Source of the DNA: Candidatus Kapaibacterium sp.
Lineage (GTDB): Bacteria; Bacteroidota; Ignavibacteria; Kapaibacteriales; UBA2268
Assembly: GCA_963665665.1 (NCBI GenBank)
Contig: OY762428.1
Location: 2,400,001 to 2,464,000 of the forward strand
Direction of reading: 5' to 3'
Length of the DNA: 64,000 nucleotides
The translations under genes were made by a program, and so were the position numbers. Below are positions 1,586 to 5,181 of the stretch, one piece after another. The notes under the pieces were generated by a model. It had not been told where the DNA came from. It searched no databases and was given only the letters and a program-made list of their open reading frames with translations. Each line of letters begins with the position of its first letter. Within the stretch, counting starts at the first letter, position 1.

Positions 1586-2116
1586 TCAATTATATTCCAG
1601 CCACTTCCTTGAAAAATCCTCGAACGAACGATTCTTGGCTTTGGCAGTTTCCACCGAGAATGCCTTCATCAGTTCGTGCATGAAATCAATTCGGGAGCGG
1701 AATTTCCTGTGGTAAAGGCTGTTGAACTCTTCCTTTGTTACATTTTCAGTATTTTCATACTGGTTAATATCGAAATCCAGGGATTTTTGATGGTTCAGCC
1801 CGGCAAGATACCAGCTTTCAATTTCCATTATTACTATCGATATTTTCTTCTTATCAAGGTTGCTGAATTTATGGCGTAATATGCCTTTCTTTTCCCCCAC
1901 GCTATAATCCTCATCCTTATCAGCAGTAAAGATATAATCAAAATCAAGAGTTTGAATGCTAAGCAGGAAAAGGTTCACTTTTTCTTTTTTCATCTGGGCA
2001 TATTTAATAATTTCAACGTCGGCATAATGCTCAAGCAGTATGGGTACTATCAGCTTTTGGAAGAAACGGTGGTCATCGTTTCCTTCAACGAATACATAAA
2101 CTTTATTTAATTTCAT
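1586..2116 (-). CDS. Toprim-fold protein (DUF4435/DUF3226-like), likely start MKLNKVYVFVEG
   Basis: VFVEGNDD (Toprim Glu), ADKD (DxD) and EIESWYL motifs; the ORF-track start at 2182 is probably too far upstream. Confidence 0.65.
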   Translation of the reverse strand: MKLNKVYVFVEGNDDHRFFQKLIVPILLEHYADVEIIKYAQMKKEKVNLFLLSIQTLDFDYIFTADKDEDYSVGEKKGILRHKFSNLDKKKISIVIMEIESWYLAGLNHQKSLDFDINQYENTENVTKEEFNSLYHRKFRSRIDFMHELMKAFSVETAKAKNRSFEDFSRKWLEYN

Positions 2117-2521
2117 TTTATTCTCCCAACAATATACTTTTAGCCGGACGAGCAATAGGCCATTATCGTTTATTTGCCGCAACCTGACCTTTTAAAATAA
2201 AATATTCCTCCGTGCAAATTATCCCGGCAGAAGCCGAGTGTTAACTCAGATAGTTGATTCTTCCCTCTTCATTATTTCAGATATCAATTAATCTGTTTAC
2301 CATGATAGTATAATTACAGGATCGTGATATAATTTATATCAAAATTGCAACATATTATAACTTTTATTGAAAACTGCTGATTCGGAAATGAGTTTGGGGG
2401 CGGGTTAAATTATATCAATACCTTCTATATGAAAATATGCTGATCATATTATATTCCGGGATTGATTTTTTGATGTCTCAACTTATGATTTAATAATTAT
2501 GAATAAAATTAAATATTATAT

Positions 2522-2549
2522 TAAAATTAATTGCATTATTAGCCGATAT
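2522..2549 (+). promoter_or_regulatory. sigma-28 (FliA/SigD)-like promoter
   Basis: TAAA-N16-GCCGATAT ending 33 nt before the ATG at 2583; the consensus is TAAA-N15/16-GCCGATAW. Confidence 0.6.
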
Positions 2550-2582
2550 TAATTATATAAAGCTAATACTATGGAGTGATAT

Positions 2583-2780
2583 ATGAAGAAGTTAATAAAC
2601 GGAAAGCAGATAATAGACCTTAGAGGCCGGGAATCATCGGCTCCGAAAATCGATGAAAACATCAGGAAAAACCTTGATGTTGCAATACAGAAGAATCACA
2701 AATCTGCAATTAAGGTGCTTGTTGACTGGATAAAAAGTGATAAGCAGGAAGACCCTTTCGAAGAATACCGCCGATTCTAA
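2583..2780 (+). CDS. Small hypothetical protein with a FliF C-terminal-like helix
   Basis: 65-aa ORF with GGAG RBS and a sigma-28-like promoter; NLDVAIQKNHKSAIKVLVDWIKSD matches the hydrophobic/Trp pattern of FliF tails. Confidence 0.65.
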   Translation: MKKLINGKQIIDLRGRESSAPKIDENIRKNLDVAIQKNHKSAIKVLVDWIKSDKQEDPFEEYRRF

Positions 2781-2934: not shown

Positions 2935-5181
2935 TTATTTAAAGGCATACTCCAAAGACATTATTATTCTTCTGCCCGGCTGCGGGAGAAGAGAACTGAG
3001 CCAGCCGCTGCTTCCATGCCAAACACCGTTTTCGCTGTAATAACCGGGTTCGTTACCGGCATCGGCAGTGCGAATACCAGGATGGAAATAGTGAGTGTCA
3101 AAAATATTTTTCAGCTTGAGTGAAAGGCTGAGCCCGTGTGCCGGAAAATCTGTTATCCGCATATTCATATCTATAATCGAGTATGCATCAACAATGCCAA
3201 CAGGATTAGTAGATACTGTTTCCCGATCAGATACGAAACGCCCGAGTATTGTAAAGAACAGTTTTTCTTTCCAGGCAGCAGTAAGCCCGAAATAAAGTTT
3301 ATGAGGAGCAATATCCCCGATCGGCCCTTCCTGGTATTCGTCTTCTTTTTCAATATAAACTTCATCCCCGTTTGTATGGGTATAAGAATAATAAGCATGA
3401 AGATCAATATCAAAATTGCTAAACAAATTCAGGAAGTAATTTAATTGATAGTCTATACCGAAGATGTTTCTTTCTCCGATATTAGCGCCCCCGATATTGA
3501 AATTCAATATAGTGTTGGTATAAATTGCATGATATGCATTTATTGATTGCCGTAATTTACCGCTACTGTAGGTGATTCCTGTTTCGAAAGTGCTGCCTTC
3601 CTCAGGCTTTAATTCCGGTTCGCTGCCAAGCCCGGACCAGGAACCATAAAGAACTCTCGGGCTTGGTGCCTGGTATGCTTCGCCGTACAGCAATTTAAAA
3701 ACAAAATCAAGCCGGTTATAAATATACCCTGCCCTTAATGTTGTAGAACCGCCATATTCGGATTGATGATCATATCTTACCCCTGCATGGAAAATATGAT
3801 TTTCTGTCAGTGAATACTTCCCATTTACGAAAATTCCTTTTTCCTCGGTTACAACTCTGTTGTCGTATTTATATGCAGGATCGGGAGGATGCGGGAAGTA
3901 ATATTCATCGGCAAATACCGAATCAGGATACATATAGGGCCCGGCATATATTTCGTAAGCTTTCTGAAGGTTTTTCTGCTGATATTCAAAACCACCGGAG
4001 AAAAACAAATCAGCAATAGGGTTATAATTAAAGTTTTGGAAAAATGCCCAGCTTGAATTCACAGATTGCCATAGTTCAAAGTTTATTAGCCGGACAGTAT
4101 CGCCTGTAATTTCATCGATAGCATTGAAGCCCTGTGCCAATGCAGAGTTATTTGGTACATCGCTGCCAAAGTATCTCAGCATACTCAAACTTCTCAATGA
4201 TTCATCAATATTGATATCATAACGGGCATATATGCTGTAATCCTGTTTTGTCCAAACAACATTTGGCAGCACTTTATCGGCAGCGTACTCATTGGCATAA
4301 CCAGATGTCAGTTCATAAAACTGGCCTCCAATTTCAGCATTGCCAAGGTATGTTCTCAGGTCTATAGCCCTGTGTCTGTTCAAAGATTGCAAACCGCCAG
4401 TTGCCTTGCTGTCAACAAAACCACCCCAAAGGTCACGGTTGTTGATATATTTTGATTTAGACCATTCATAAGTTTCATTGGTTTCCGGGAAGTCATCACC
4501 GTTTTCAAAACGGGCAGATAAAGCAACCTTTATATCATCTTTCTTGTAGAAATAGCTTATATCGCCGATATATTTATCATAATTTCCAATCGATGCTTTT
4601 CCGGAAATCTCAGAGCCGTCGCTGATCGCATCTTTTTTTGTAATAATATTGATAACACCTGTAAAAGCATTCGCACCGTATATAACCGAAACCGGGCCGT
4701 AAACAACTTCAATACGTTCAATATTTGAAATCGGACAGGCACGCATTGATTCGGAATCATTATAATAGAGATCAGACCAGACCATTCCGTCTAACATCAT
4801 CAGATACGGGCTGCCGAATGAATTCCTGTAGCCGCGCATATAATTTTTAAATGAAATATCGTTATTCACACGAATAACATCCATACCCGGAAGGTCGTCA
4901 AGAATTTCAGAAAGGTCTGAATAGCCCCGGTTATTTATATCCTCACGCGAAATAACCATAACCGTAGCAGGGGCCTCGGTGGCTGATTCATAAATATTTG
5001 ATGCCGTAATAACTTTCAGGTTCAGCAATTCATCGATTGATAATTCTGATAAAGTCTTTCCGGATACTATTTCATTATCATCAGCAAACAAATTTAAAGC
5101 TGTAAACAAGATAAGGGGTATAAAAATATTTTTAATTCTTCTTATCACTACATTATCCTTTTTAATGAAGCTTAAATTCAT
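2935..5181 (-). CDS. TonB-dependent outer-membrane receptor
   Basis: Plug motifs (APATVMVISREDI, IERIEVVYGPVSVIYGANAFTGVINIITKK), KNIFD near the C-terminus and an aromatic-ending terminal beta strand. Confidence 0.93.
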   Translation of the reverse strand: MNLSFIKKDNVVIRRIKNIFIPLILFTALNLFADDNEIVSGKTLSELSIDELLNLKVITASNIYESATEAPATVMVISREDINNRGYSDLSEILDDLPGMDVIRVNNDISFKNYMRGYRNSFGSPYLMMLDGMVWSDLYYNDSESMRACPISNIERIEVVYGPVSVIYGANAFTGVINIITKKDAISDGSEISGKASIGNYDKYIGDISYFYKKDDIKVALSARFENGDDFPETNETYEWSKSKYINNRDLWGGFVDSKATGGLQSLNRHRAIDLRTYLGNAEIGGQFYELTSGYANEYAADKVLPNVVWTKQDYSIYARYDINIDESLRSLSMLRYFGSDVPNNSALAQGFNAIDEITGDTVRLINFELWQSVNSSWAFFQNFNYNPIADLFFSGGFEYQQKNLQKAYEIYAGPYMYPDSVFADEYYFPHPPDPAYKYDNRVVTEEKGIFVNGKYSLTENHIFHAGVRYDHQSEYGGSTTLRAGYIYNRLDFVFKLLYGEAYQAPSPRVLYGSWSGLGSEPELKPEEGSTFETGITYSSGKLRQSINAYHAIYTNTILNFNIGGANIGERNIFGIDYQLNYFLNLFSNFDIDLHAYYSYTHTNGDEVYIEKEDEYQEGPIGDIAPHKLYFGLTAAWKEKLFFTILGRFVSDRETVSTNPVGIVDAYSIIDMNMRITDFPAHGLSLSLKLKNIFDTHYFHPGIRTADAGNEPGYYSENGVWHGSSGWLSSLLPQPGRRIIMSLEYAFK

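Follow-up and report, generated by a model that had tools for sequence, protein, structure and literature searches.

The stretch considered here, termed the window throughout, comprises 64,000 nucleotides (positions 2,400,001-2,464,000) of the single-contig genome of Candidatus Kapaibacterium sp. (assembly GCA_963665665.1, contig OY762428.1; 5,458,198 bases, 38.6% G+C) and carries a small open reading frame (ORF) of 65 amino acids (aa) on the plus strand, here called mp65. According to the ORF listing, mp65 extends from an ATG at 2583 to a stop codon at 2778-2780 (2583-2780 with the stop included), and direct reading of the sequence places a ribosome-binding site, GGAG, at 2573-2576, 6 nucleotides (nt) 5' of this ATG. 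Further upstream, a -35-like TAAA (2522-2525, plus strand) is followed 16 nt downstream by a -10-like GCCGATAT (2542-2549), which ends 33 nt before the start codon, giving a promoter of the sigma-28 (FliA) type. An earlier description of this DNA made from its letters only (hereafter the sequence-only reading) had reported a monocistronic 65-aa ORF with a GGAG ribosome-binding site and TAAA-N16-GCCGATAT just upstream, and every one of these elements was found again at the positions given here. The encoded protein falls into a basic N-terminal part (residues 1-24; 2583-2654), which displays no regular structure in the model and is poorly conserved in the only paralog, and an amphipathic helix-hinge-helix core (residues 20-53; 2640-2741), which is the segment predicted to contact the flagellar protein FliG, as judged from a complex model, invariant columns and the monomer helix. 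With a confidence that stops just short of even, we propose that mp65 and its paralog are sigma-28-timed surrogates of the tail at the C-terminus of FliF, the protein of the membrane/supramembrane (MS) ring, and cap free FliG.

The gene stands alone, its neighbours being encoded on the opposite strand. Upstream, a 198-aa ORF (1586-2182, minus strand), for which no Pfam family was found at E up to 1e-4, and a pyridoxal phosphate-dependent enzyme of Cys/Met metabolism, likewise on the minus strand, are located, while a TonB-dependent receptor gene (2935-5181, minus strand; ORF listing and family scan) converges with mp65 from the other side. Directly after the mp65 stop codon, between the convergent genes, a pattern scan detected a 10-bp hairpin (2787-2810; without strand, listed on the minus strand), which is possibly a two-way terminator. 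The mp65 ORF is free-standing, and a Pfam scan of its protein with E values as high as 10 gave no match, the ring-building domains PF01514 and PF08345 included. Its sole NCBIfam match, to an Mre11-type model, reaches 12.6 bits against a cut-off of 500 and was dismissed as noise.

A search of the genome with mp65 by tblastn yielded one paralog, mp61, a 61-aa ORF at genome positions 1940716-1940898 on the minus strand, which shares 52% identity with mp65 over 42 residues (E 1.5e-8; next match E 0.11). It is preceded by AAGGAGG before its ATG, followed by a G+C-rich hairpin after its stop (read from the sequence), and has as its neighbours a gene resembling YicC and an ORF of 386 aa for which no Pfam family was found. 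Invariant columns between both proteins include I23, D24, I27, K29, N30, L31, A34, I35, K37, N38, H39, S41, A42, V45, L46, W49, I50, K51, D53, P58, F59 and F65. Among the 42 aligned codons, 22 encode identical residues, and 12 of these 22 do so with different codons; identity by codon position amounts to 0.69, 0.76 and 0.45. This pattern of divergence indicates selection on a translated protein. Additional material comes from the contig of a second strain (another study, depth 3.2), which spans window positions 2477-2718 with four changes. One of them lies upstream, at 2541, the last base of the promoter spacer, leaving both promoter elements intact; within the 136 nt of the ORF that are covered, two changes are synonymous and the remaining one is A20V, a position at which the paralog also carries V. 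Run X4 leaves window positions 2372-2467 and 2732-2899 without cover, and nothing is concluded from these gaps. Sequencing runs X1-X3, by contrast, contain the whole stretch and may be where it comes from. Given that a 65-aa ORF can occur by chance in DNA of 39% G+C, one might suppose that the ORFs are untranslated, in which case their promoters would serve small RNAs or have no product. This explanation is very improbable in view of the identity shared by the two ORFs, the third codon position as the least conserved one, the GGAG or AAGGAGG at correct distance in both ORFs, and the listing of both mp65 and mp61 as proteins in a public collection.

Which regulon the pair belongs to can be addressed by the flagellar background of the genome. 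FliA is encoded (208.2 bits against a cut-off of 189.6), as are FliF (224 bits), a single FliG of 340 aa and four ORFs with a flagellin N-domain; fliF is found in a cluster running from flgC to fliF, fliG and the next ORF. The element TAAA-N15-GCCGATA precedes a 91-aa FlgM-like ORF (TIGR03824: E 0.0013 and 19.5 bits, below the cut-off of 40.75) at the end of a flagellin-FliS-FliD-FlaG-FliT-like cluster, and a one-mismatch form, GCCGAAA, is positioned 74 nt before a flagellin gene. The motif marks late flagellar genes in this genome, exactly in the case of the FlgM-like ORF and with one mismatch in that of the flagellin. The paralog mp61, too, has TAAA-N15-GCCGATAA 44 nt before its start, and beyond the two promoter elements its upstream DNA is little like that of mp65. 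By our own arithmetic, a given gene would have an exact motif in the 150 nt upstream of it, on the correct strand, with a probability of about 3 in 10,000. Because of this placement before the FlgM-like ORF, the flagellin gene and the paralog, and because FliA is encoded, reading the mp65 promoter as a sigma-28 promoter is well founded; sigma-28 dependence of mp65 and mp61 in vivo would follow from the motifs. The sigma-28 control put forward by the sequence-only reading thereby gains support, with the motif retained at a separate paralog.

Exact TAAA-N15-GCCGATA sites are additionally present just before small ORFs at genome positions around 2224981 (minus), 2238078 (minus), 5252985 (plus) and 4220269 (plus). 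The ORFs behind them comprise one of 79 aa without family, one of 73 aa with a Nif11 domain, one of 65 aa and one of 54 aa, and as judged from the motif copies they are possible additional members of the FliA regulon. Upstream of a flagellin-like gene (genome 1460112, minus strand), TGGCAC-N5-TTGT occurs, which we take to resemble a promoter of the sigma-54 type, so that two sigma factors may share control over the flagellin genes here.

With regard to the partner of mp65, a complex prediction was carried out, as the sequence-only reading had suggested. Residues 1-105 of FliG, representing its N-terminal domain (FliG-N; alignment of 17 rows), were combined with residues 18-65 of mp65 (alignment of two rows). 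The prediction came out in favour of a complex, with values of the interface score ipSAE of 0.71, 0.71 and 0.69, as compared to 0.02 for the best of three controls. The ipSAE mark applied was attained in 116 of 157 cases among solved complexes and in 2 of 215 among mismatched pairs, counts that are only a rough calibration here since our own alignments were used. Contacts agree to at least 93% between the runs, and the partner is modelled with a predicted local distance difference test (pLDDT) of at least 70. On the mp65 side, the predicted interface is formed by residues 20-24, 27-28, 31-32, 34-36, 38-50 and 52-53, and on the FliG side by residues within 12-77. W49 is predicted to touch FliG residues 13, 14, 16 and 17, L46 to touch 17, 20, 21 and 32, and V45 to touch 66, 69 and 70; FliG 13-17 beneath W49 is part of a motif conserved across the family. 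The predicted contact residues L31, A34, I35, A42, V45, L46, W49 and I50 coincide with invariant columns of mp65 and its paralog. By alignment, FliG residue n corresponds to n-5 of the chain in PDB entry 5TDY and to n-7 of the Salmonella chain, and with the latter offset the contacted region 12-77 lies mostly within domain D1 (1-67) of Salmonella FliG, the very domain around which the FliF C-terminus wraps according to the available text of PMC11087270. The complex model supports binding of mp65 to FliG-N without demonstrating it, and the favourable score may reflect likeness to solved FliF-FliG complexes.

Language-model neighbours point in the same direction. In the ESM Atlas, mp65 has at rank 1 a cluster of 68 aa bearing the name 'flagellar M-ring protein FliF family protein' and at rank 3 one of 72 aa called 'putative Flagellar M-ring protein FliF' (score 0.89 each), and for the paralog a 69-aa and a 68-aa cluster with FliF names occupy ranks 2 and 3 (score 0.88). 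Scores below 0.9 count as leads only, and the paralogs are not independent queries. Each FliF-named cluster has between 50 and 74 members with lengths of 68-72 aa, most of which come from Thermodesulfobacteriota; the names were assigned automatically, despite a size well below that of FliF, and such clusters of about 70 aa may represent free FliF-like small proteins or gene fragments.

For a comparison with the FliF tail itself, the last 55 FliF residues of this genome and of 16 relatives were used instead of the Salmonella-type sequence underlying the sequence-only reading. Alignment by hhalign places mp65 residues 25-60 without gaps on tail columns 25-60, which correspond to FliF positions 39 to 4 as counted from its C-terminal end (score 17.9, P 0.0039, probability 8.7%). 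None of 200 column shuffles reaches this score (maximum 17.4), and the reversed alignment scores 9.3. In this register, hydrophobic tail residues stand opposite 11 of the 13 hydrophobic interface residues of mp65, an agreement that is descriptive since the register was chosen by the aligner. For the same reason, the helix-hinge-helix layout with the hydrophobic register of the tails, which mp65 displays, does not count as independent evidence. The hinge N38-H39 of mp65 falls opposite D-T/P in the tails. The earlier claim that the hydrophobic positions and the Trp of FliF tails are kept agrees with these tails at most of the hydrophobic positions, whereas W49 faces W in one tail only and L, M, F, I, V or Y in the other 16. 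Similarly, the statement that His replaces the usual Pro fits just 5 of the 17 tails, with T opposite H39 in the remaining 12.

Several results weigh against the proposed FliF-tail surrogate and its binding to FliG. Foremost, BLASTP of mp65 against the FliF of the same genome retrieved no tail segment (best match E 0.20, at FliF 209-230), and the paralog gave E 7.8 or worse in the same comparison. A hidden Markov model (HMM) of the 17 tails, run against 88,733 six-frame ORFs of the genome, returned 986 matches at E up to 1000 with neither mp65 nor mp61 among them. When hhalign was run on 55 natural control windows, each covering 60 columns of the FliF or FliG alignment, a periplasmic FliF stretch obtained 21.2-22.2, more than the 17.9 of the tail, and a FliG stretch 15.0-15.2. 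Because a natural control window outscores the tail, hhalign is too generous in the P-value that it assigns to a profile of two rows. Judged by sequence statistics, the likeness to FliF tails is weak and does not go beyond chance. Of the ungapped alignment to the FliF C-terminus in the sequence-only reading, the register was reproduced by hhalign, while BLASTP and the tail HMM stayed blank and one control window scored higher. On the structural side, the AlphaFold2 monomer of mp65 shows one long helix over residues 25-52 with no hinge (mean pLDDT 70.5). Both substituted partners of the complex test came out with low confidence (pLDDT 39 and 52), and the set of controls comprised no helical decoy, no scrambled mp65 and no native FliF tail; the groove of FliG-N, being suited to an amphipathic helix pair, might accept other helices in silico as well. 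With respect to regulation, TAAA-N15/16-GCCGATA occurs at 19 sites genome-wide, where about 19 are expected from 1061 occurrences of GCCGATA, so the motif alone, being unenriched, proves nothing and its placement carries the argument. Exact copies also precede non-flagellar ORFs, for instance a Nif11-like one, and neither mp65 nor mp61 is part of a flagellar locus. Finally, the mp65 family is restricted to the present genome and one almost identical strain; none of the 60 relatives searched has a homolog, although 46 of them possess FliG-N.

The negative homology results are softened by the fast divergence of the tail, seen in that the family tail profile, searched against the PDB with E values as high as 1, retrieves not a single chain of FliF, and that the alignment of the curated FliF model ends at residue 498 of 599. 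Still, BLASTP, the tail HMM and hhalign with its controls together reveal no detectable homology of mp65 to FliF tails. The idea of FliG binding is accordingly drawn from the predicted complex and the leads from the language model and not from sequence statistics. Separately from the tail, residues 9-31 of mp65 (window 2607-2675) resemble periplasmic FliF around residues 208-230, with nine identities in 22-23 residues (E 0.20 in the above BLASTP; hhalign P 0.0004), a likeness that is probably due to chance; this is the periplasmic stretch which, as a natural control, weakens the hhalign statistics. That mp65 might have arisen out of two pieces of fliF, with the N-terminal part derived from around 208-230 and the C-terminal part from the tail, was rejected for now, as the paralog lacks the N-terminal likeness.

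Since the FliF-tail similarity is not significant, other partners than FliG have to be considered. Both paralogs have sigma-28-type promoters, and they could be late-class flagellar or chemotaxis microproteins acting, for example, as modulators of FliA or of the FlgM-like protein, as chaperone-like factors for a late export substrate, or as substrates of the flagellar export apparatus by virtue of the disordered basic N-terminus. This alternative gains from the N-terminal region, for which the monomer model shows no helix before residue 25, block-mean pLDDT values of 47 and 50 over residues 1-20 and residues 1-9 as the sole segment below 50, leaving the first 24 residues without regular structure. 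Moreover, late genes include small regulators and chaperones, and FliS, FliT-like and FlgM-like ORFs are found in this very genome. No match of mp65 to FlgM, FliS, FliT or any Pfam or NCBIfam family was obtained, however; the language-model neighbours are named FliF and not FlgM or chaperones, and FliG-N, the single partner tested in silico, passed by a wide margin in the prediction. On balance, a partner other than FliG appears unlikely, yet it deserves more weight than any other explanation set against the FliF-tail surrogate.

The narrow distribution was established by several routes. A word-indexed search of 5.8 billion proteins with mp65 returned the query alone, and a HMMER scan of 1.84 billion representatives recovered, besides mp65 itself and mp61, only two long proteins (1906 aa and 496 aa), which we read as repeat proteins of ankyrin and PPR type. 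The scores of the latter two are sums of four to five weak stretches, for which reason they were rejected; mp65 consists of a single unit without Pfam match and thus belongs neither to the ankyrin nor to the PPR proteins. Six-frame searches of 60 relatives gave a best E of 0.017, with all matches located inside long frames or containing stops, and in scans of genome and metagenome contigs 0 of 533 and 0 of 586 pattern matches, respectively, were confirmed. A PDB search with the two-paralog profile returned RecA, aspartate dehydrogenase and Pho23 at E 0.03-0.16, which were regarded as chance matches. FliG-N is present in 31 of 36 relatives of the same family, and the relatives with matching FliG are titled Ignavibacteria bacterium, Candidatus Kapaibacterium or Chlorobiota, with 62-87% FliG identity save for one distant match. 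As relatives with FliG-N do without an mp65 homolog, any role of mp65 is dispensable. The gene pair is new. Concerning the distribution of homologs, which the sequence-only reading had named as a check, the only homolog resides in the same flagellated genome and retains both the Trp motif and the promoter.

An orphan pair of this kind, missing from the 60 relatives, the 1.84 billion representatives and the contig scans alike, could also be a young, lineage-specific pair of genes without flagellar role, with motifs that are due to chance or to a FliA regulon extending past motility and a docking result that is a false positive of a groove prone to accept helices. The non-flagellar loci of both genes and the unenriched motif, which stands before the Nif11-like ORF as well, fit this explanation. 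On the other hand, both paralogs carry a motif despite its low chance per gene and their diverged flanks, purifying selection is visible between them, and the complex score is reached by only the 2 of 215 mismatched pairs mentioned above. All in all, the absence of a flagellar role is quite improbable, more so than a partner other than FliG.

Free FliF-tail-like small proteins exist in this lineage, as the sequence of a further small protein shows. K61, a 61-aa ORF outside the window (genome 4736818-4737000, minus strand), is the best non-FliF match of the tail HMM (E 0.11). Reciprocally, the best non-self match of a K61 profile in the genome is FliF (E 0.035), and hhalign of K61 against FliF tails yields a probability of 58% (P 1e-4); by these sequence comparisons K61 resembles FliF tails more clearly than mp65 does. 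Small-ORF homologs of K61 were detected in 11 of the 36 family genomes with a single query and in 31 of the 36 with a profile, and in none of 24 genomes from other families of the order with the profile. Thirty of the 36 family genomes encode both K61 and FliG-N and four neither; one genome has K61 only (82% complete) and another FliG-N only (86% complete). As related genomes are not independent, this co-occurrence describes a pattern without testing it. K61 members go by the name of hypothetical proteins in public sources, and inspection by eye showed no sigma-28 motif upstream of K61.

With mp65, K61 shares its standalone nature, a length of 58-88 aa, the helix-hinge-helix layout, an acidic end and the same alignment register, whereas it differs in being closer to FliF tails, in its family-wide occurrence (31 of 36 genomes) and in lacking a sigma-28 motif. 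Kinship of the two was considered but is not supported, with an hhalign P of 0.084 and the K61 HMM ranking the paralog 166th (E 250) and leaving mp65 unlisted. K61 follows a 427-aa ORF that is read as a putative dihydroorotase. At genome positions around 4735760-4736500, five or six overlapping open frames on both strands with short periodic peptide patterns were noticed, a pattern that suggests a tandem DNA repeat.

Returning to the proposed surrogate of the FliF tail, a mechanism can be outlined as follows. Both mp65 and its 61-aa paralog would be made as cytoplasmic microproteins from sigma-28 (FliA) promoters, and FliA timing would lead to their expression together with the late flagellar genes, after completion of the hook-basal body. 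The core of mp65 (about residues 20-53) would then fold on the N-domain of FliG at the site normally held by the FliF tail of the MS ring. In this way, a free tail-like peptide, produced only upon release of FliA, would encounter FliG still waiting for a ring and fill its docking site, and capped FliG would be unable to dock on a new MS ring. Such a scheme can draw on what is known of the native pair. The FliF tail consists of two helices with a hinge (PMC6079021, in the part available), isolated FliG-N collapsed in simulations while FliG-N and the FliF tail co-fold (available sections of PMC8956890), and the fold of FliG-N depends on the FliF tail through this co-folding (accessible text of PMC8956890, PMC6079021 and PMC7355467). 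Provided that binding takes place, titration of free FliG, i.e. a late negative feedback on the start of new motors, would be its probable consequence; a holdase function that keeps unassembled FliG folded for exchange would then be conceivable, at somewhat below even expectation, and is compatible with the same data. The consequences put forward by the sequence-only reading, a limit on new basal bodies or the disengagement of C-rings, are likewise inferences. Stripping of cytoplasmic rings (C-rings) from finished motors is the least likely outcome because, as far as the available text of PMC11087270 goes, the FliF C-terminus is tightly tethered to FliG D1.

Among known systems, the closest likeness is to the FliF tail itself (PDB 5TDY and 5WUJ; Salmonella cryo-EM structure of the C-ring), which shares with mp65 two amphipathic helices, a hinge and a length of about 35 residues. 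To this may be added the predicted contacts within FliG 12-77, mostly in D1, the register with 11 of 13 hydrophobic positions, and the W found in one family tail. In contrast to FliF, mp65 is a free protein of 65 aa without membrane segments or ring-building domains, without significant similarity, and with a late promoter, and it has His where the tails have Thr or Pro. By homology and domain content, mp65 is therefore no FliF protein; judging from the model, it may nevertheless work like a FliF tail.

Other soluble proteins are known to act on the rotor via FliG, namely the EpsE clutch of Bacillus subtilis and the YcgR brake of E. coli and Salmonella, both of which affect rotor-stator coupling, with YcgR responding to cyclic di-GMP (PMC13432727, as far as available). 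While mp65 resembles them in being soluble and in its proposed action on the rotor through FliG, it is predicted to bind the domain that attaches FliG to the MS ring and has no sequence relation to them; EpsE and YcgR, according to the same available text, copy no partner's binding segment. In the available part of this 2026 review, the word 'mimic' is absent (PMC13432727). A literature search in full text for FliF-tail mimics or dominant-negative fragments, FliG sequestration and flagellar number, evaluated from listings and abstracts and covering subscription journals thinly, brought up no free FliF-tail decoy.

FlgM offers another parallel, as it is likewise small and partly disordered, has a sigma-28 promoter and feeds back on flagellar assembly, as mp65 would. 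The proposed target of mp65, however, is FliG and not FliA, and mp65 is no member of the FlgM family, having no match to PF04316 or TIGR03824, just as the paralog has no NCBIfam match. In eukaryotes, microProteins are small proteins that reproduce a single interaction domain of a bigger one and thereby titrate the partner of the latter. The competition logic proposed for mp65 is the same, whereas the domain of life and the protein families differ and descent of mp65 from FliF would be hypothetical.

Understanding of how bacteria limit the number of motor starts, and of how they handle FliG that is off the ring, is still incomplete. Those soluble binders of FliG that are known affect torque or switching and not the joint between MS ring and C-ring, at least as described in the available part of PMC13432727. 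On a broader scale, it is conceivable, if doubtful, that this lineage has a layer of flagellar control in which the MS-ring tail acts in the form of free copies, with mp65 and mp61 together with K61 competing with FliF for FliG-N and thereby setting the number of motors started as well as the storage and exchange of FliG; the Thermodesulfobacteriota clusters of about 70 aa would in this case be independent inventions. If the proposed capping of FliG by mp65 is true, the pair would represent a simple system that is directly testable with two small proteins, would provide a natural tool to hold FliG-N folded and soluble, and, as a late-expressed peptide occupying the FliF site on FliG, would establish a new regulatory principle for the flagellum.

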